From Curvularia clavata (lineage: Eukaryota), in NCBI GenBank assembly GCA_023920165.1, contig CP089274.1, forward strand, positions 2,480,001-2,544,000: a DNA stretch of 64,000 bases, in the 5' to 3' direction. The position numbers were made by a program, and so were the translations under genes. Of this stretch, positions 1-13,995 are shown piece by piece (positions within the stretch are counted from its first letter, which is position 1; each line of letters starts with the position of its first letter). The notes beneath the pieces are model-generated. The model worked only from the letters and a program-made list of their open reading frames with translations. It was not told where the DNA came from and ran no database searches.

Positions 1-373
1 CACCTCCATGCCCGAGGACCTTCCCATTCAGCCCGGCGGCAACCCCGCTCTCTGGGAATCCCTCTACAACGTTACAGTCTCCGTCGCCAACACCGGTGAT
101 GTCGCCGGCGCCGCTGTACCCCAGCTGTACGTTGGCCTGCCTTCTTCCGCCCCTGCCGGCACCCCCGTGCGCCAGCTCCGCGGCTTCGAGAAGGTGTACC
201 TTGAGAAGGGCGAGTCGCAGAGCGTCAGCTTCGAGCTGCAACGCCGCGACCTCAGCTACTGGGATGTTGTCAGCCAGCAGTGGGTTATTCCTGAGGGTGA
301 GTTCAACATTTGGGTTGGACTCAGCAGCAGGGATTTGAAGGTTAAGGATAGCTTTACGGTTGTTGGACAGTAA
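1..373 (+). CDS. GH3 beta-glucosidase, C-terminal part with Fn3-like domain (gene starts upstream of the window)
   Basis: ORF 8..373 has PGGNPALW, V.NTG.VAG..VPQLY, P.RQLRGFEKV.L..GES..V.F.L.RRDLSYWD and VG.SSRDL, typical of fungal GH3 C-termini. Confidence 0.93.
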   Translation, partial: TSMPEDLPIQPGGNPALWESLYNVTVSVANTGDVAGAAVPQLYVGLPSSAPAGTPVRQLRGFEKVYLEKGESQSVSFELQRRDLSYWDVVSQQWVIPEGEFNIWVGLSSRDLKVKDSFTVVGQ

Positions 374-879
374 AAGATCCTGGCCAGGAAAAGTGTTTAC
401 GTGATTATGAGTATACGAACAGATAGTTAATTTCTATTGTTTCCTAAACTACTCCTTGTGGGGTTTGATGCTCGTGATGCAAATTTCATGGGCTGAACAT
501 GCTTTGTTATCTGATATTTGATTGAGCTCCTCACACGCTGTTGTGCAGCAGTCGACGAACACCAAATCTATATCTGGTATGAGCTTACATCAGTAGCGTG
601 GCAGGGTGAGGGATCGCAATCATGCAGTGATACAGCCTCAACAAGGATAAGCCAGCACAACTTGGACATCACGGCATGTACTGAATAAGAGAGTAGAGTA
701 TGACGAGACCTTAGCGTTCCATTTTTTTTAACAACAGGCAGAATTGACTTTCCACCAAATAGCCAAATACACGAGTCCCTTCCTCCAATGCCTCCCGATG
801 CACTCAACACATTAAGGCTTTCTCGTCACCACTCGCCAACACCCACCCACCAACTCATCCCGAGCTTCTATTGCACCAA

Positions 880-1775
880 CACGCTGGAGCGACATTGACA
901 CCGTGCATAATGCCGGGCAACCTTCCATTAATGCAAACGCAACGCGAGCCAGATTCCCAGAAGCCCATCGCTGTTCCCGGACCCCCACCACACCGTCGGA
1001 TCACCGCTACTATGATCGCAGAGCCGTTCTCACCCGAAATCGCTGGAGTGACATCACACCGAAAACGATGGTCGGGGACCTTCCATTAAGGTAGAAACCA
1101 CGCTGCTCCAGAATGAGAGGTCGTTGATCGGCAGGTGTGATGTAGCTAGGGTACTGAAGAACTTGGTGCGGTGAAGTGAGGCGGAGTAGGATAGAAGTAC
1201 ATGAGAAGAGAAGAGTCTGTATGATGTTAGCACGGCACAATGGATGGCGGGAAGTGACTTACGCATCGCTGCTATCTACAAACGATGTCAATTATTTGAT
1301 AGTTATTCAGTGGCAGAAGATGAGCTTCGAAGCCACGGCAAGCAGCAGAACGCTCGCTTGAGTTAATGTTCAAGGGTGTGTGATGAACCCGAAATGATGC
1401 CAGCCACGGAAGTGCTTGCTAGAATGAGTGCCAGCGACGGTCACTCATACTGCGACTGACTTGTGGTCTTCGGTGGCTGGCAATGGCTGGCTTTTCAAAC
1501 CTGCCGATGGTTAGGAGTAGATACGAGATGCCATGAAGGCGTATACTTGTTGTTTGGCGCCCGCCTGAGCGGGTGCTCCATCTGAGCCGCATTTGCTTCG
1601 AGTTGACCGACCTTCAAGGCAAGCAAGGTGGGTTCCGACCATGGTGTCTTTGAGAGAAAGTCATGAATAAGGCTGAGAAGCGAAGGGATGTAACAGTAGT
1701 AGAAAAGTGTGAAGTTTGTTGTGTGGCTGGTGGAGGAGAAGTGGGGAGTAGTGGGTAGCAGGTATTATATAGTGA
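880..1775 (-). other. Candidate spliced non-coding or small-ORF transcript (boundaries approximate)
   Basis: Minus-strand TATATAA at 1771-1765, pyrimidine-rich leader, canonical intron 1262-1217 (GTAAGT..GCTAAC..CAG), probable introns 1546-1501 and 1460/1450-1276, and no recognisable ORF. Confidence 0.5.
882..1112. repeat. Two degenerate direct repeats (cores 882-931 and 1041-1089)
   Basis: CGCTGGAG-Y-GACAT..ACACCG-[16 variable nt]-ACCTTCCATTAA present twice, 37/50 identity by manual alignment. Confidence 0.85.
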
Positions 1776-4016
1776 GAGACAGGCGGCGCCAAGCCTGAGG
1801 CCACGTGATACGCGGCCGTTTGCTACCATACTACGTGCCCCATTTTTATGAAGTGAGGATGTTTACTCACTTCATAAAAGCGGGGCGCATTATCGTCAAA
1901 CCAGCGATAAGAGCCTCTAGGATTTTCTGCCCAGTTCTGGTGCTTTCTGTGTGGAATCCAATTGCGCCATGAGGCCACTGGCTTGTGATGTGGTGAGGGT
2001 GAAGGAGAGATATGAGTGATGCGCTGGAGCGGATGATACTTATGCCCGGTATCTGAAATCGAGTGATTAAGAGCTGAGTTATGAAGGTAATTGTATGGCA
2101 TACATGCATATGTTTGGATTATGCATCGCAAATATCTCAAATTGTGTCGGGCCCCCTTCGATAGAGGAACTGCTCAAGTTCGAAGAAGTACTAAGATGAA
2201 TGAACCCTCCTTACTGATCATATTGGCCAGTATCCTCCATTCACGAACCTTTCAATGTATGCAGTTCCTATTGGAATTTGGTATGTGTCCAATTGGAAGT
2301 GCCACACAGCTGCAGTAAAGTATTAGTAAACAAAAAGTGAGCGGCGATACCTGCCTCGAGTTATATCATGTTCCTTGCCGACTCTTTGTACTATCTAGCG
2401 TCGTGTCCGTACACTAAAGAATCTTTTGGTTAGCCAGGCTCGGGATAGGAGTGGATCGCGTCAAGCGTTCTTGAGGCCATTAGAGAACATTAGCTTACCG
2501 GATAATACTTGATCCCAACTCCACTATCCATATAGGGAAACCAAAATCCAGGTTTATGACAGTAGCGTTGCGATAATTTGCAATCTACTGCCTTGAAAGG
2601 ACCAACGCATAAGGACCCAAGGTCCGCAGAGACAAATGTGCTAGAAAAACGGCACGTGTTAGCTGTACGCCTTGGCTAGTGATGCCAAGGGCATTGTAGG
2701 TTGGGTTTACCGTACGCAGAATTGTAGAATATGGCGACAGCTTAGACTAGGCCAATGGTTGCTTAGACTGCGTGCTCTTGACTTTTATGGTGAGATGGGT
2801 GTGGAAGATTAATATGCTGAACAAACAATTGAACATTCTAAATGCGTAGGTTAGGACGAAGTTATATACCTACATATGTATCTTACGTGCATATACGCCT
2901 AAATAGAGTTTGCTTATGATCTAGAGTTGCCTTCTAGTGCTCCGAGTTTACAGATGTCCCCTCGTGTGAGACTAAACTAGCCATGCGTAATTTGGGTCGA
3001 ACGACGGCATGCAATTGGCCCAGCTTACCGAACAGTCCCATCGCAACTGCTATTGCATTTTAACCTAGTTTAGAGAACGGGGGAGTGCCATCTGCATCGC
3101 TGGGTCATATGCGTTTTAAGCTTTGTCGCCACTATGCATAGGGAGGAACCGCATTTCGATTGTTGTAATAGGCACTCGATAAGATATACTGGAGCATGAT
3201 CACATGGTACTAGTTGCGCCTGGCTACTGCTGACATTGGTACAGGTCGTACCGAACTCTGCCTATTCAAATCAACAACTATTCTGATCTAGAGCGACCAG
3301 GTCATGAAATGCGTTGACATTTAGAGAAAGGGGTTAGAGTTCCGCCGAAAGCAATGCTGGCTGAGACTAGAGCAGCTTTCCACATAAAGCCATTGCCTAT
3401 CGAGCGTGCTTTGCTGCAGGACCTATGGCTCTGATCCATCTAGTTGAACTGAATATATAGGTAAGGCGCCGACAAGATATTCCTGGCCGCTTATGCTCGT
3501 CGTGTTCCTGGGTCGATGTAGGTACAAGACGGTAAATGAGTAGAAATAGTATTGAATATGTTACATGGGTATGCTATGAGAGCGAGAATGAAATGCAAGT
3601 CAAATTCTTACCCTAATTCATGATCGAGTCCAGATTGTGCATGGATATACTCATGCGGTTGAATGTACCTCTGTTATGACAACTTGTTTACAGCTAACAT
3701 GTAAGGTAAAGAGAACTCTCAGGGTGAACGTATGAAAAATCATCCCAGAAATACTTGCAAATCAATCCATTGAGTACCCCATCAAGTCTCGTTCTCAAAC
3801 TATCGATCCGATACAGGGTGGAGAAGACCAGACGTTGAAAGCGGAAATCCGAGGCACGTCCCAATCGGAGAAACCCCGGCCTGACCCCAAAACTCCCCCG
3901 TCGCATTGTCGCGAAAGAGCTCGCAGCACCCATCTAGTACAGCGACTCCCGCCCTTCCAACGTCCTCCATCTCAGCCCCTCAATCGCACGCGCCCGACGC
4001 GCCAAACACTGCAAGC

Positions 4017-5368
4017 ATGGCCGCCGCCGAAGCCGAAGTTGCAGACGCGCTTTACAACCTGCGTCTCAGTATCAAAGCCAACTCAGCACCCATTCTCACG
4101 ACAAGCGCAACGCCCACCCCTGCAGATACCGTCAGCGATCTCTCGCAAGCAACGCACATCTCGTTCAATCTCGACTCGGGCGAACACCGCAACTTTGCGC
4201 TCAGCACACCGACGCGATTTGCGCCCGATGGCAACCCCGTGGACCTGCGCAGCTGCTACTTTGCGTGGCTCAACAAAGACGCTTCCGTTACGGATTACTT
4301 TGCCGCTGTGCAGACGCTGAATGAGGAGCTACCTAGTGGCGCGGGAGGCAGCGTGCAAAACCTGACCTTTGCGCAGAAGATTGAATTGATTGCTTGGCTG
4401 AGTGGAGAGACGGAGAGCAGTGATAGTATCGCTGCTATAGATGGCGGTGCTCTGACTGCCGCTGCAGGTGACGCCGCTGCCATTGCAGGTGGAAAAGGCG
4501 TCCCAGTCGATGCTGGCAAAGGCACCAAGGTGGGAAGTGCAGGCGGCATGATGGACGCGCGGTTACTACAGATTTACGATGGCGAGCGGAAAATGGGTGA
4601 CCATAACAGCGTCTTGCGAGGAACCAAGAACGTCGTACGTATAACCCCCATTGAAGTAAAATCAAATCAGAAGCAAGCATACTAACTCATCACCCATCAC
4701 AGGACTTCTCCTCCTACCGCAAAATCGCCGCAACCTTCCTCCGCGCCCGCCCTTCAGATCCCAAAGTCCCGCCTCCACAACCCGCTCTCGTCGCAAACCT
4801 TCAAAAGCGTCCTCAGCGCCGCCTCCAACCCATCATTCTTCTCTCACCCTCCGCCTCCTCTCTGCTTCGCACCTCAAACGTAAAAACCTTCCTCTCAGAC
4901 GGCATCTTCGTGCCCCCCAACACCACCGATTCATCCTCTACCTCCGCCAGCGCAAACATGATCCAAATCCAGCGTCTGCTACCCTCGATATCCTCGCAAC
5001 CCCTGACCTTTATCTGCGTCGATAGCACCGCCTCGTTCAAACCCACGTACTGGAGCCGTGTCGTTGCTATCTTTACTACCGGTCAACTCTGGCAGTTCAA
5101 GTCGTACAAGTACACGCAGCCCGCGGAGCTGTTTGCAAATTACCCTGGTATCTATGTCGGATGGAGCACAGAGGAGCCGCCGGAGACGGTCAAGCAGTTG
5201 GGTCGTGGTGTGTTGCCTGTCGGTGTGGACAAGTGGACTGGTAGCGACAAGGGCAGGTGGAGGGATAGGGAGGTGGTGGAGAGGATCTGGGGCAGGATTG
5301 AGGACGGTATGAGGAAGGGTGGGTGGACGAGAGATGGGCCGGGACTCGCTGGGCCGCAGGCACGGTAG
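4017..5368 (+). CDS. CDC73: Paf1 complex subunit Cdc73/parafibromin
   Basis: Exons 4017-4634 and 4703-5368 (GTACGT..CTAAC..CAG intron). Motifs DLRSCYFAWL, LRGTKNVDFS, PIILLSPSASSLL, YWSRVVAIFTTGQLWQFKSYK, RWRDREVVERIW. Confidence 0.93.
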
Positions 5369-5804
5369 AGACGAGGTATTTGAATGTTTTTTTCTTGCAC
5401 ATTGTGCATATGTCAAGTTGTTAGCACGGGATATCCGTCTTTCCCCCTTCGGAGGTGTTTTTGGCGTTATAAAAATCATGCATGGAATAGCATACTTAGC
5501 TTTGGGCATGCCTTTTGGGAATAGGTGCTAGCTTTATTCTATCATCAGTCCAAGGACTCGGAAGTTGCATTGAGAAAAAGAGTCAACAATACCACGCTTG
5601 TTGATCCGAACATTGATAAGATCGTATCTTCATGTATTTCATTCAATAGTCATTATTTAGTTTCTCACACAAGACTATCTGAGGCCCAAAGCAATGAGCG
5701 TCCTGCCCACCGATATGCACAAATGAAGCGTAACCCGCGTAATTACGAAAATAAAAAGCCAAGGCCCAAATCACTTTTTTCGTCCTTAAATCTCTTCGTC
5801 GTTT

Positions 5805-8284
5805 CTACCACTCGAGCGGCTCCTTGAGCTCCTCTCCTCTGTTTGTCTTGGGTACGGCCTGTGCCTGGATCTTAACCGGGCCCTTGCCATGTCTGCTCAG
5901 GTATCCGCTGCCATCCAGCCACGGCCAGACTGCGGTACGCTTCTGCTCATGCTTCTCAATCTTGTCGACGCTCGCCATGGTCAGGCCGATATCGTCCAGA
6001 CCATTGACAAGGCAGTGTTTCCTGAACTCCTCGACTTCGAATTTCGCGAGCTCGGTGCCATCGGCAGAGCGAATGACTTGGTTGGGCAGGTCAACCTCAA
6101 TCTCCTTGCCGGCCCTCGCTTCGTCAGCAATACGCTGAATGGTAGCCACATCTCCAATCCGGATGGGAAGCATGCCGTTCTTGAATGTGTTGTTGAAAAA
6201 GATGTCGCCGAAGGACGGTGCAATGATGCACTTGATACCAAAGTCAAGGAGAGCCCAGGGTGCGTGTTCTCGACTTGATCCGCAGCCAAAGTTGGGTCCA
6301 GTGCAGACCAGGATCTTTGACTTGCGGTAAGGCTCCTTGTTCAGGACGAAATCTGGGTTTTCCTTGTCACTGCCTGGCTCGTAGCGCCATGCGTGGAAGA
6401 GAGCGTTGCCGAGGCCGGAGCGCTTGATTGTCTTGAGGAATTGCTTGGGAATGATAGCATCAGTGTCAATGTTTGCAATGTCCATGGGCGCTGCGTATCC
6501 GCGGAGAGTCTCAAACTTGGGCATGCCTGCTGGCGCACTCGCTGTGCTTGATGTGTTGGAAGCAGTGTGTTGTGGTCCCGAACTGGGCTGGTCCATAAGT
6601 TTGTCAAACTCCTCGTCGCTGCTGGGGGGCTCCACGTGAGCGTCAAGTTCGATCTTAGGGGAACCCGAGGCGTGTGCTGTAGCATCGGGTGCGATTTTTC
6701 GTACATCGGCCAGGTTTCCTACAATGGCAGCAGCAGCGGCCATGGCGGGCGACATGAGATGAGTTCGACCACCAGCGCCCTGTCGGCCTTCGAAGTTGCG
6801 GTTCGATGTTGACGCACATCTTTCGCCGGGAGAGAGGATGTCAGGGTTCATTCCAAGACACATGGAGCATCCGGCTTCTCTCCATTCGAATCCAGCATCA
6901 AGGAAGATCTTGTCGAGGCCTTCAGCTTCCGCCTGCTTCTTGACGAGACCAGATCCAGGCACGATCATGGCACGCTTGATGTTGGAAGCAACCTTCTTGC
7001 CTTTTACAATTTGTGCAGCAGAGCGCAAGTCCTCGATACGAGCATTGGTACAAGATCCAATGAAAATCTTGTCCAAGGAAATTTCCTGCATAGGAGTACC
7101 GGCAGTCAAGCCCATGTACTTCAGTGCGCGCTCACACGCCGCCTTTTTGACCTCATCCTGGAAGTCATCGGGGCCAGGCACTACACCAGTGATGGGCACG
7201 ACATCCTGAGGCGAGGTTCCCCAAGAGACTGTTGGCGCAATGTCCTTTGCGTCGATCAAGACCTCAATGTCGTACTTGGCGCCTTCATCCGACTTCAGGC
7301 TGAGCCAGTAATTGCATGCCTTCTTCCACTCTGGGCTGTCGACCTTTGGCGCCAGGGGCCTACCCTTGAGGTATTCAATGGTAGTCTGATCTGGCGCAAT
7401 CATACCAGCTCTTGCGCCTCCTTCGATGGACATGTTGCACATGGACATACGCGCCTCCATGCTCAGGCCGCGGATAGCCGAACCGCAGAACTCGATGACA
7501 GCACCAGTTCCTCCAGCGGTGCCGATCTTGCCAATGACATGCAGGATGATGTCCTTGCTGCTAACACCGGGTCCCAGCTCACCATCGACTTGAACCTTCA
7601 TGTTCTTACTCCGTTGGGTGATGATGGTCTGTGTGGCCAAAACGTGCTCGACTTCACTCGTACCAATACCGAAGGCGAGGGCACCGAACGCGCCATGTGT
7701 AGAGGTGTGGCTGTCACCGCATACTACTGTTGTTCCAGGGAGCGTGAAGCCTTGTTCTGGTCCAATAATGTGCACAATACCCTGCCTCTTGTCATCGAGG
7801 CCAAAGTATGTGAGGTCGAAAGCCTTGACATTCTCTTCGAGGGTCATGCATTGTAACCGGGAATCGGCCTCCTCGATGAACTTCTCGGTCGTGGTAAGGT
7901 TTTTTCTTGAGGCGGTAGGGATATTCTGCCCATGTTAGTGACCAGGCAGGCCATGGAGACTTTGTAGCATACATGATCTACTGTTGCAAGAGTGCAGTCA
8001 GGTCTTCGCACTTTACGACCGGCATTGCGGAGGCCTTCAAAGGCTTGCTGTGGTTTTTTGTGAGCTTTGGAGGGGCTGATACCAATTCCGGGGTTTGCCT
8101 ACTGGTGATGTCACTTCGTGGACAAGATGCCTGTCTGCAAATGGGTTAGTTTAGAAGACTTTGAGTCTGCAGTACAAGGCGTACCAATGTAAAGCAGGAT
8201 TGTGCCATCTTCCTTCTCCTCGACAATGTGGTCCTCGAAGACCTTGTCGTACAGGGTCTGCGGTGGTTTCACAGCAGACGGCAT
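5805..8284 (-). CDS. LEU1: 3-isopropylmalate dehydratase (fused large and small subunits)
   Basis: [82 protein letters not shown]. Three short 5' introns. Confidence 0.98.
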
Positions 8285-13305: not shown

Positions 13306-13391
13306 CTCCGCTTGGTGTAGTTGGTTTATCACGTTCGACTGTAATAGCAATTGTAATCGAAAGGTCCCTAGTTCGATTCTGGGAGCGGAGA
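13306..13391 (+). tRNA. tRNA-Tyr (GUA) with 11-nt intron (13345-13355)
   Basis: Acceptor stem CTCCGCT/AGCGGAG plus discriminator A, D arm GTG..CAC with TGG, anticodon stem TTCGA/TCGAA with CT-GTA-A loop, T arm CCTAG-TTCGATT-CTGGG, downstream T-run Pol III terminator. Confidence 0.96.
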
Positions 13392-13995
13392 ACAGCTACT
13401 TTCTTTTTTGATGATGCTATCTCAGATTGCATAGCCGAAAGGATCTCTTTTTTTTGCTAGCGGAGTGGTTAGAAGGGAAATAGTGGGGAAGGAGGGGCTT
13501 GCAGAATTGCCGAGACTTCGGAATGCACGCAGCACGGTTTAGTGCTAGACGAATTGGATCCAGGAAGAGGGAATTAGCAACGTGGCCTGATCAAGAGGTG
13601 GTTCTAACAATGTATTTTTGCAAAGGTCATCTCGAGGTCGGTCGCTCTAGAATCCACCCTATTTGCGGAGGATATCTACTCTTCAATCTTCACTTCTTTC
13701 CATCCAATCAGGCTTCGTGGCGCAATGGTAGCGCGTCAGATTCCAGTACTCACATCTGGAGATTCCTGAAGGTTAGGCGTTCAAATCGCCTCGAGGTCAC
13801 ATACCTGGTTTCCATTCTTTTTGCCAATTTTTCAGACGGATTCTCTAGTCTTTTTTACGCTCTTGTGGGTCTTGCAGGTGTGGCTCCGAGTCCAGGTTGG
13901 GTCGGATGTTGTAAGGAGGGGCGACTCCACCATGAGCCGAGGGGTCTGGACCGGCTTTTTTTGATTGAGTTGATTTGGTTCTATCCAATCTGGTA

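Follow-up and report, generated by a model that had tools for sequence, protein, structure and literature searches.

Two copies of a predicted hairpin module in a conserved domain of a spliced, apparently noncoding fungal transcript

Several long noncoding RNAs (lncRNAs) dock proteins through repeated modules, as NORAD does with Pumilio, Xist with its A-repeat, and roX with its stem-loops. The locus that we analyzed lies in a 64-kb window of Curvularia clavata (the whole stretch under study; contig CP089274.1, positions 2,480,001 to 2,544,000), and it resembles these RNAs in that a spliced, apparently noncoding Pol II-type transcript conserves only a short repeated hairpin-plus-flank module while the rest drifts. 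It differs from them in being fungal and in having two modules only, with neither UGUA nor a conserved loop sequence, and protein binding is putative here. Fungal telomerase RNA is another long Pol II noncoding RNA, one whose 3' processing is linked to the spliceosome. Our transcript shares with it a length of ∼1.8 kb, conserved structure confined to short parts, and an intron close to the conserved part, the donor of which reads ATAAGT in one related locus (L006). However, the intron is fully removed here, and the conserved block lies downstream of it, where telomerase RNA would be discarded. Assuming TTAGGG as the telomere repeat, we found no permutation of (CCCTAA) of at least 9 nt in the RNA-sense stretches of the window and of four of the five loci, and the single match of this type, in L003, lies 2.1 kb upstream in unaligned sequence. 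The candidate was rejected because the window transcript has no template of at least 9 nt. Tandem riboswitch aptamers and the fungal intronic TPP riboswitch are comparable in their invariant junction and internal-loop nucleotides and variable peripheral stems, in tandem domains that are each closed by a helix, and in the conserved intron alongside, but the block has no Rfam riboswitch match, no regulated open reading frame (ORF) in its transcript, and no clue to a ligand.

Structured RNAs of fungi have also been collected in surveys. The part of Gao, Jones, and Rivas 2021 (PMC8216456) considered here describes “conserved intergenic structures 1-4,” obtained by comparative genomics, and intergenic hairpins with partial H/ACA features, and the corresponding part of Li and Breaker 2017 (PMC5640933) presents 15 motifs as candidate structural noncoding RNAs of fungi. 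As far as these parts go, our locus is alike in being a lineage-restricted fungal RNA of unassigned function, outside protein genes, that is recognized by conservation and covariation. The structures in PMC8216456 are described there as single hairpins with an H box and a guide-like pocket, whereas we find a ∼320-nt two-domain fold with duplicated modules in a last exon. The SDC, amd, ies6, hexA, SART-1, and ribosomal-protein motifs and the HDV variants do not fit in context, a distinction drawn from their partial descriptions and not from sequence, and four motifs of the block are absent from three supplementary files of PMC5640933, a comparison whose scope was those files and not the Stockholm alignments. 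With Rfam 15 at gathering scores, the whole window yielded only two tRNAs, at 13.3 to 13.8 kb. At an E value of ≤5, positions 380 to 3800 returned only a chance-level match to sR41 at 2029 to 2086 (15.8 bits; gathering score, 54), and five related loci gave no match at an E value of ≤1. Limited literature searching together with Rfam, with the supplementary alignments of the closest surveys outside its scope, found no description of the element, which we regard as a candidate RNA family beyond current RNA databases.

A preliminary description of the window had reported a motif at 882 to 931 that recurs at 1041 to 1089, and both copies stand at these positions when the sequence is reread. A repeat search pairs 882 to 895 with 1041 to 1054 (14 nt, 93% identity, spaced 159 nt), and the 64-kb window contains two occurrences of ACCTTCCATTAA and no more, at positions 920 and 1078, where 0.27 occurrences are expected by chance with at most one mismatch and 4 of 100 shuffles reach two. 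Gapped local alignment of 800 to 1035 with 1036 to 1260 isolates exactly both copies with a score of 36, compared with 15.5 ± 2.1 and a maximum of 23 for shuffled sequences (n = 300). Global alignment of the same two segments reveals weaker similarity that extends ∼20 nt upstream and ∼30 nt downstream, and the duplicated unit is therefore longer than 50 nt. The repeat itself is real and confirmed. It stands above chance because it is conserved in other species, not by its folding energy: the folding z-scores of six fragments range from −1.03 to +0.13, with neither strand unusual, and that of the whole 482-nt exon is +0.05. The closures of the variable middles by CCG..CGG and CCGA..TCGG are present in the sequence as described, while CTGGAG is found at 1043 to 1048 instead of 1044 to 1049. 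The additional closures that had been proposed for the second copy, CTGGAG/CTCCAG and ACCTT/AAGGT, are not kept in other species in a six-sequence alignment.

Contigs from three sequencing runs (X15, X16, and X17) cover the repeat; these runs are presumed to be RNA without being recorded as such, and contigs cannot show strand, ends, or level. The contigs begin at 739, 786, and 732, respectively, and continue without an internal junction to 1216, defining a terminal exon at 732 to 1216 on the minus strand. One contig each of X15 and X16 then skips 46 nt from 1216 to 1263 (CT..AC), which corresponds to a minus-strand intron at 1217 to 1262 with the signals GTAAGT..GCTAAC..ACAG. Donor, branch point, and acceptor of this intron align in all six species, with the ATAAGT donor in L006. 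Further upstream in the transcript, the X15 and X16 contigs cover a poorly conserved internal exon without a long ORF at 1263 to 2052 on the minus strand, for which neither blastn nor tblastn found a match in related metagenome loci. A second intron (2053 to 2103, minus strand; 51 nt, GTATGC..TTTCAG) follows, as the loose ends of these contigs past 2052 resume at window position 2104, where 29 of 30 letters agree on visual comparison. One or more upstream exons would extend over 2104 to 2655 on the minus strand, the 5' limit being taken only from the lengths of the contig records, in which 551 to 552 nt lie beyond the 2052 junction (X16 record 4 and X15 record 2). Both skipped pieces have GT..AG ends when read on the minus strand, which places the repeat in the final exon of a spliced transcript from that strand. 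Both introns carry fungal-type GTAAGT/CTAAC signals, and GT-AG splicing on one strand, which is expected of a Pol II-type lncRNA, is seen in the presumed-RNA contigs. No stop-to-stop frame in the spliced model exceeds 99 amino acids, and no ORF is conserved across the species. Given this lack of a conserved or long ORF, we refer to the spliced, apparently noncoding transcript of ∼1.8 kb as an lncRNA. The contigs of X15 and X16 come from a related strain that is 2.5 to 7.5% diverged from the window: the last exon differs at 12 of its 478 nt, and the stretch from 1263 to 1886 at 47 of 624 nt. Contig stops at 732, 739, and 786 beside a genomic A-run at 723 to 730 (minus strand) are only a hint at the 3' end, because contigs cannot show ends; they would place it near 732 to 739. 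Positions 422 to 726 have no contig cover in the four runs compared, an observation that we did not use as evidence.

To collect relatives of the repeat, metagenomes were scanned with a two-block pattern, which returned six loci. Because the pattern required both conserved blocks, the invariance of these loci is partly built in. They match window positions 826 to 1187 at 73.7 to 75.7% identity over 267 to 362 nt, and within positions 1 to 6000 the only nongenic match is a block at ∼843 to 1160 on the minus strand, composed of two tandem domains of ∼160 nt each; the rest of 380 to 3840 has no blastn match to the loci. The flanking genes match the same loci at 80 to 84% (GH3) and 71 to 77% (Cdc73) identity. 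Judged by these identities, the block is as well conserved as the neighboring genes. After removal of L005, a duplicate of L004, the whole-block alignment (A2) was a small sample of six distinct sequences from about five lineages, L004 and L006 being close. Its mean column identity is 80%, with invariant runs of up to 14 and 13 nt. Both hairpin copies and the upstream intron are present at each locus, and a covariance model of the hairpin (R1) recovers both copies in all seven sources, with no third copy in the 95,403 nt searched. Compared with the window, the block has the opposite orientation with respect to GH3 and Cdc73 in L004, L005, and L006. It adjoins the same GH3 ortholog in four of the five lineages, and its downstream neighbor is the convergent 3' end of GH3 in the window, Cdc73 in L004, the 5' end of GH3 in L002, and neither of them in L001. 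The origin of these sequences from marine and other metagenome contigs suggests that the family spans several fungal lineages.

The model R1 matches copy 2, which comes first (5') in the RNA, at 1037 to 1101 on the minus strand (66.4 bits; E value, 7e-15), which contains 1041 to 1089, and copy 1, the 3' copy, at 878 to 943 on the minus strand (66.2 bits), which contains 882 to 931. Read 5' to 3', the module has first a small hairpin (GC-CUUGUG-GC), followed by UUAA and a basal stem (YGRA/UYCR); then come an asymmetric internal loop of invariant sequence, an apical stem-loop that varies freely, and GCG. The internal loop combines an A-U pair, a G facing another G, and G-U and U-A pairs with a C-R-C bulge of 3 nt; when it was compared by eye with consensus motifs, K-turn, C/D, H/ACA, SECIS-like, and tetraloop-receptor readings did not fit. 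In copy 2, UGGA at 1082 to 1085 pairs with UCCA at 1044 to 1047 in the basal stem and CCGA at 1072 to 1075 with UCGG at 1059 to 1062 in the apical stem, which across species reads CCGA/UCGG, CCGG/CCGG, CCUGA/UCAGG, or CCAG/CUGG. The corresponding elements of copy 1 are a basal stem (924 to 927 with 885 to 888), an inner helix (914 to 923 with 892 to 903), and the small 5' hairpin (939 to 941 with 932 to 934). What had been taken for conserved flanks around a variable center is indeed conserved, but these segments are not mere flanks, as they pair with each other in the basal stem and the variable middle forms the apical stem-loop. Each copy lies in one helix-closed domain on the minus strand. 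Domain 1 (980 to 1153) is closed by a long-range helix between 1139 to 1153 and 980 to 994, in which CCCUAGCU.. pairs with ..GGUGGGGG; 4 of its 14 pairs are changed on both sides, and 90.5% of its cells are paired. Domain 2 (848 to 973) is closed by helices of 958 to 973 with 848 to 870 and 944 to 952 with 876 to 884, together 23 pairs with 93 to 100% of cells paired and two pairs changed on both sides.

The whole-block structure was predicted and counted on the same A2 alignment (RNAalifold, six sequences), giving 82 pairs with 93.7% of 492 cells paired. Changes on both sides affect 17 of these pairs, compared with 8.3 ± 1.9 in shuffled controls, none of which reaches 17 in 500 trials, and with one to four in six slid controls. 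An alignment of the 12 hairpin units (A3) has 98.2% of 166 cells paired and 8 of 14 pairs changed on both sides, compared with 4.4 ± 1.1 after shuffling (reached in 1 of 500) and zero to three after sliding. The basal stem occurs as UGGA/UCCA, CGAA/UUCG, and CGGA/UCCG, without a mismatch in any of the 12 units. Covariation in these alignments supports an RNA structure. The preliminary description had favored a functional RNA module over neutral decay and had proposed homologs and covariation as checks, and both bear it out: orthologs at six metagenome loci retain the two units with compensatory changes, and the double-sided changes exceed the shuffled and slid controls. The strand needs correction, as splice junctions, G-U cells, and RNAalifold energy all favor the minus strand. 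G-U pairs occupy 89 cells versus 5 for A-C, an excess that places the fold on the minus strand, and RNAalifold gives −69.56 with a covariation term of −4.92 for the minus strand and −48.44 and −0.6 for the plus strand. Folding energy lends no support, with z-scores from −1.49 to +1.28 for the 12 units as well; minimum free energy (MFE) folding of single units yields the full consensus hairpin in 1 of 12 and the apical stem in 5 of 12. Single-sequence MFE does give the consensus fold for copy 1. For copy 2, the RNAalifold folding departs from the paralogy-based hairpin, and the strain variant at 1035 breaks a predicted pair of this alternative; another strain variant, at 1042, alters a base that is invariant in six species. 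The pairings CCUU..AAGG and UGGA..UCCA are mutually exclusive.

As an alternative to an RNA module, the preliminary description had considered a frameshifted peptide repeat, but no reading frame is conserved across the species. A frameshifted or decayed coding repeat on the minus strand, LNGRSPTIVFGV / INGRLPGIMHGV, would account for the 6 of 12 residues that these peptides share, for the stop-free stretches of 71 to 76 amino acids over each copy in the window, and for the 7 of 10 listed strain differences that fall in one codon-phase class. The frame favored by this phase bias is closed by stops, and we attribute the bias to chance (p of ∼0.06, binomial estimate). At least one stop interrupts the block in each of the 36 frame-by-sequence combinations, and among the 20 distinct gap runs in the core, 15 have a length that three does not divide; the peptide repeat is therefore rejected. 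The six frames are also alike in translated identity (∼46 to 52%), there are no translated matches outside the block, and the invariant runs of 13 to 14 nt are unlike codon-wise conservation. None of the 10 listed strain differences is synonymous in the LNGR frame, where one creates a stop, and three of eight are synonymous inside the INGR ORF; a coding gene would be expected to keep its frame, take indels in threes, and show a synonymous excess, none of which was found. Five stop-to-stop frames over the repeat gave no Pfam family above the cutoff, the best being DUF5386 (E value, 0.019) and Prenylcys_lyase (E value, 0.13). Taken together, we regard a coding origin as exceedingly improbable. 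The longest ATG-initiated ORFs in the 1.5 kb upstream of the block have 70 to 124 amino acids in five of six species and are not shared, and the 217-amino-acid ORF of L006 probably sits at the expected 3' end of GH3. A small ORF that would terminate in the conserved CGTAG(A/C)TAG just before the intron was discarded for want of a shared ATG or frame in the six species. A 63-nt intron (GTGAGA..AACAG) at 971 to 1033, which would have linked the two peptide frames, was likewise rejected, as the contigs run through it and the other five species lack its AG. Almost no weight falls on the reading of the repeat as what neutral decay has left of an old tandem duplication within transcribed DNA that has no function. 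The 158- to 159-nt period and the ordinary folding energies agree with it, but the block is conserved like neighboring coding sequence amid ∼3 kb that cannot be aligned, both copies are kept in all species, compensatory changes exceed the controls, and the 71 to 84% identity of the flanking genes argues against very recent relatives.

Other readings accept a function but place it elsewhere. A processed small RNA or trans-acting guide may be released from the block, with the lncRNA as a mere host in the manner of an atypical snoRNA; the invariant single-stranded runs of 13 to 14 nt in copy 2, CUUAAUGGAAGGU and GAUGUCACUCCAGCG, would then pair with another RNA. The flanks of copy 2 are invariant in six of six species, whereas copy 1 shows compensated variation at the corresponding positions, which points to constraint beyond pairing, and fungal snoRNAs are often carried in noncoding hosts. 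Box C/D snoRNAs join an RUGAUGA C box and a CUGA D box by a terminal stem, and in box H/ACA snoRNAs an ANANNA hinge connects a pair of pocket hairpins and ACA stands 3 nt before the 3' end. By eye, A2 and A3 contain no conserved RUGAUGA/CUGA pair or ANANNA hinge: (G/A/C)AUGUC and GCGAUG(A/G)G vary at the positions that define a C/D box, CUGA occurs only in some species, and the hinge between the two domains in A2 is GGGAAC(A/G)GC(G/A). An ACA tail is likewise not seen in these alignments, whose edges are not a mapped 3' end. No snoRNA family, H/ACA models included, matches positions 380 to 3800 of the window at an E value of ≤5 or the five loci at ≤1, neither strand of the 64-kb window holds a complementary site elsewhere, and the presumed-RNA contigs keep the block within a long spliced molecule. 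Even with the fungal intergenic hairpins that show partial H/ACA features in the part of PMC8216456 considered, we think a guide unlikely. A cis-acting element, such as a tandem aptamer or a 3'-end stability or processing element acting on its own transcript or on neighboring transcription, would suit the aptamer-like layout (an invariant internal loop, variable peripheral stems, and domains closed by a long-range helix), the position immediately behind a conserved intron and ∼100 nt short of the inferred 3' end, and the mutually exclusive CCUU..AAGG and UGGA..UCCA pairings. The same RNA has no upstream ORF to regulate, the downstream neighbor differs among species, no Rfam riboswitch family matches, and the gene context suggests no ligand, so that such an element appears very unlikely. 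A new eukaryotic class of tandem aptamer or sensor, in which two cooperating domains of ∼160 nt would respond to a small molecule or a dimeric factor and a CCUU..AAGG/UGGA..UCCA switch might control RNA fate or read-through into the neighbors, is decidedly unlikely as well. At the DNA level, the repeat could represent an enhancer or promoter with duplicated factor sites, transcription being incidental. Palindromes of the CCG-N-CGG type resemble the sites of Zn2Cys6 (zinc-cluster) factors, in which conserved CGG/CCG triplets stand a fixed distance apart. The orientation of the block with respect to GH3 and Cdc73 is reversed in three loci, as it could be for an orientation-independent element, and the block stays beside the same GH3 ortholog in most lineages. 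However, the two halves change together (CCAG/CUGG, CCUGA/UCAGG, CUCGC/GCGAG, CUCA/UGAG), so that pairing is kept while the triplets are lost, and the loops vary from 4 to 9 nt; a Zn2Cys6 site was rejected on these grounds. The 89 versus 5 G-U and A-C cells and the strand asymmetry of 21 kcal/mol would be meaningless for double-stranded DNA, and in six of six species the intron signals point the same way with respect to the block, which indicates that the whole transcription unit was inverted and not the element alone. We therefore judge a DNA element to be highly improbable.

It is very probable, in our assessment, that the block is a selected structured domain that would work as RNA. The full explanation, in which paralogous hairpin copies form part of a selected lncRNA domain, is likely: the two motifs would be copies of one RNA hairpin module of ∼65 nt, one in each half of a tandemly duplicated, helix-enclosed domain of ∼320 nt (843 to 1160, minus strand) that would occupy most of the last exon of the ∼1.8-kb spliced transcript. 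The invariant internal loop and flanks, the merely structural role of the apical stem, and the presence of two copies suggest protein docking. Each hairpin might dock an RNA-binding protein that is specific for sequence and shape, which would make the lncRNA a bivalent scaffold or decoy. In the block we recognized no motif for a known RNA-binding protein, and we put this putative mechanism forward tentatively.

To our knowledge, conserved sequence and covariation-supported structure are absent from most lncRNAs, and among those of fungi very few show either. The transcript described here would be a spliced fungal noncoding RNA with a ∼320-nt domain conserved as strongly as its coding neighbors, and it adds a candidate family that is missing from current RNA databases. 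Its two hairpins, with their defined compensatory pairs, may offer a small, mutable handle on what a conserved lncRNA domain does.

Reading of the window sequence confirmed two copies of a ∼50-nt motif at 882-931 (copy 1) and 1041-1089 (copy 2), as the preliminary description had them. A repeat search placed the 5' block of the motif at 882-895 and again, 159 nt away and 93% identical, at 1041-1054. Within the 64 kb searched, the 12-mer ACCTTCCATTAA is confined to positions 920 and 1078. Local alignment with gaps between the two halves of 800-1260 singled out exactly the two copies, with a score of 36 versus 15.5 ± 2.1 (maximum, 23) in 300 shuffles. Weaker similarity extends beyond both sides of the copies in a global alignment. 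The sequence does contain the small hairpins proposed for the two copies, but these fold with unremarkable energies on either strand (z, −1.03 to +0.13), as does the whole exon (z, +0.05); the CTGGAG described with the second copy lies at 1043-1048, one nucleotide away from where it had been placed.

Scanning metagenomes for the pattern CTGGAGYGACAT-N18-28-ACCTTCCATTAA yielded six loci, whose invariance is partly built in, since the pattern demanded both blocks. When window positions 1 to 6000 were compared with these loci by blastn, the end of a GH3 β-glucosidase gene (2-373, plus strand; Fn3-like domain, E = 3e-29) matched at 80 to 84% and the Cdc73 gene (from about 4017, plus strand; CDC73_C, E = 5e-49) at 71 to 77%, and the only nongenic match was 826-1187, at 73.7 to 75.7% in all six loci; the remaining ∼3 kb between the two genes gave no blastn match in any of them. 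Locus L005 duplicates L004 within the block and was left out of later alignments, and L006 is close to L004, so that about five lineages remain. In L004, L005, and L006, the orientation of the block is reversed with respect to both flanking genes; the L002 block is 1.35 kb upstream of where a GH3 gene starts, the protein of which is 85% identical to that of L004, and in L001 neither neighbor gene is found within 3 kb. Because simple inversions explain these layouts, we infer no functional linkage from the adjacency to GH3. Elsewhere in the window are two tRNA genes (13306-13391 and 13711-13799, plus strand, 320 nt between them), which at 86 and 89 nt exceed 71 nt and thus probably contain introns, and a 709-amino-acid open frame (5805-7934, minus strand), a putative aconitase-family dehydratase of the 3-isopropylmalate dehydratase type, judging from its sequence.

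Four sequencing runs, none of them recorded as RNA, were placed on 300-2100, two of which (X15 and X16) we presumed to be RNA, with their junctions as the sole support. Their contigs, which carry the same species label as the window and are 2.5 to 7.5% diverged from it, begin at 739 or 786, are colinear with it as far as 1216, resume at 1263, and extend to 2052, after which a loose end picks up at 2104. The two skipped pieces, 1217-1262 (46 nt; GTAAGT, GCTAAC, and ACAG) and 2053-2103 (51 nt; GTATGC and TTTCAG), both start with CT and end with AC on the plus strand, which corresponds to GT..AG on the minus strand. Splicing of a minus-strand RNA best accounts for two such exact removals, whose fungal-type splice signals all lie on one strand. 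Past 2104 the contigs reach another 551 to 552 nt, and their other end lies at 732-786, next to an A-run. The short intron directly upstream of the block in the RNA sense is aligned in all six species from its donor through its branch point (CTAAC/CTGAC) to its acceptor (YAG); the donor is GTAAGT or GTATGT in five species and ATAAGT in L006 (about 1075-1080, minus strand), which may reflect either a sequencing error or an atypical 5' splice site. Within the preceding exon, CGTAG(A/C)TAG, 8 to 10 nt upstream of the donor (window 1263-1290), is shared by all six, the rest being unalignable; it places stop codons in two frames. Between the strain of these contigs and the window, 12 of 478 nt differ in the last exon and 47 of 624 nt in the upstream exon. 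The poorly conserved internal exon also holds two repeats, an inverted one of 15 nt (1398-1412/1468-1482, with 93% complementarity) and a direct one, TGCCAGC(C/G)ACGG, at 1398 and 1429; strain differences are dense across 1398-1482, with a 2-nt deletion at 1465.

Folding of the six-sequence block alignment with RNAalifold gave 82 pairs on the minus strand (energy, −69.56; covariation term, −4.92), compared with 68 pairs on the plus strand (−48.44 and −0.6). In the minus-strand structure 93.7% of 492 cells are paired (372 Watson-Crick, 89 G-U, and 5 A-C), and the excess of G-U over A-C indicates that the fold belongs to this strand, in agreement with the direction of splicing. Both sides had changed in 17 pairs, versus 8.3 ± 1.9 in shuffled alignments (none of 500 as high) and 1 to 4 in six slid controls, a count taken on the same alignment from which the structure was inferred and on a sample of about five lineages. 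Two long-range helices, 1139-1153 with 980-994 and 958-973 with 848-870, each close one half of the block.

The 12 repeat units, two per species, share one common fold that runs from a 3-bp hairpin (UGC..GCA in copy 1, GGC..GCC in copy 2) through UUAA, a basal stem, an internal loop of invariant letters with a C-R-C bulge, and an apical stem-loop to GCG. The motif had been described as conserved flanks around a variable stem-loop; the variable middle is indeed the apical stem, but the flanks pair with each other as the basal stem. The latter is UGGA/UCCA in the window, in L003, and in every copy 2, CGAA/UUCG in L004 and L006, and CGGA/UCCG in L001 and L002, and is free of mismatches in all 12 units, while the apical stem takes the forms CCG/CGG, CCGA/UCGG, CCGG/CCGG, CUCGC/GCGAG, CUCA/UGAG, CCUGA/UCAGG, and CCAG/CUGG. 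Pairing holds in 98.2% of 166 cells, and 8 of 14 pairs have changed on both sides (4.4 ± 1.1 when shuffled, 1 of 500 as high; 0 to 3 when slid). A covariance model built from these units matched each of seven sources exactly twice, with no further match in the 95,403 nt searched. Folded singly, 1 of 12 units matched the consensus fully and 5 recovered the apical stem (z, −1.49 to +1.28). For copy 2, the RNAalifold fold differs from the hairpin based on paralogy; a strain variant at 1035 breaks a pair of the RNAalifold version, and one at 1042 alters an otherwise invariant base. Apical stem-loops differ among species and are identical or nearly so between the copies of some, such as CCCGGCUUGCUCCGG in L003 (2836-2900 and 2998-3060) and CCCGAUCAUGUGUCGGU in L006 (750-815 and 911-974), whereas the window copies are strongly unlike; this likeness suggests occasional gene conversion or joint selection.

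The alternative of a frameshifted peptide repeat was rejected, and we consider coding of any kind highly improbable. At least one stop interrupts the ∼315-nt block in all 36 frame-by-sequence combinations, 15 of the 20 distinct gap runs of the conserved core have lengths not divisible by three, and the longest invariant stretches measure 14 and 13 nt. When all 163 stop-to-stop fragments of 380-3840 were searched by tblastn, matches to the loci fell almost only within the block (the exceptions being a few of 10 to 46 amino acids, E = 0.007 to 0.03), and the long ones had about 46 to 52% identity, similar across several frames and both strands. In the LNGR frame, no synonymous change appears among the 10 strain differences listed, and one of them creates a stop; 8 of the 10 lie inside the INGR open reading frame, where 3 are synonymous. 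No frame over the repeat matched Pfam, and the spliced model has no stop-to-stop frame above 99 amino acids. Across 844-1105, 7 of these 10 last-exon differences fall in one class modulo 3 and none in a second; the frames so favored are closed by stops, and we treated this bias as chance.

Among noncoding readings, a processed guide-like small RNA appears unlikely, a cis-acting sensor or stability element is less probable still, and an element acting at the DNA level would be quite surprising. Features of C/D, k-turn, and telomerase RNAs, as usually defined, were not found in the block alignments and loci; of the H/ACA features, the ANANNA hinge was not seen between the two domains, which are joined by GGGAAC(A/G)GC(G/A), and no Rfam H/ACA model matched. 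The string AAACCCTAACC, equal to 1.7 telomere-type repeats and the only such match in the six stretches, lies ∼2.1 kb upstream of the block of L003 in the RNA sense, with about 0.35 such matches estimated by chance over the searched set. Rfam gave nothing in 380-3800 except a chance-level match away from the repeat; its two tRNAs apart, the window matched none of the families, and neither did five of the loci. Full-text literature searches turned up no account of the element; the nearest likeness is to fungal structural-RNA candidates (Gao et al. 2021, PMC8216456; Li & Breaker 2017, PMC5640933), the published descriptions of which contain nothing like the block.

The proposal of a functional RNA module holds, with its strand corrected to minus and its architecture revised, and the covariation and the retention of two copies per species leave neutral decay with a negligible probability. 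On this evidence the block is probably a structured RNA domain under selection, lying in the last exon of a spliced noncoding transcript, and a candidate for a new family of structured lncRNAs, as judged against Rfam and the published descriptions. Its internal loop and flanks are invariant, its apical stem covaries freely, its loops are not conserved, and both copies are kept in every species, copy 2 being frozen in sequence. Since this pattern is as expected of protein-docking hairpins, we tentatively favor, over the other readings, a lncRNA whose two hairpins would be putative protein-docking sites and which may thus serve as a bivalent RNP scaffold or decoy.
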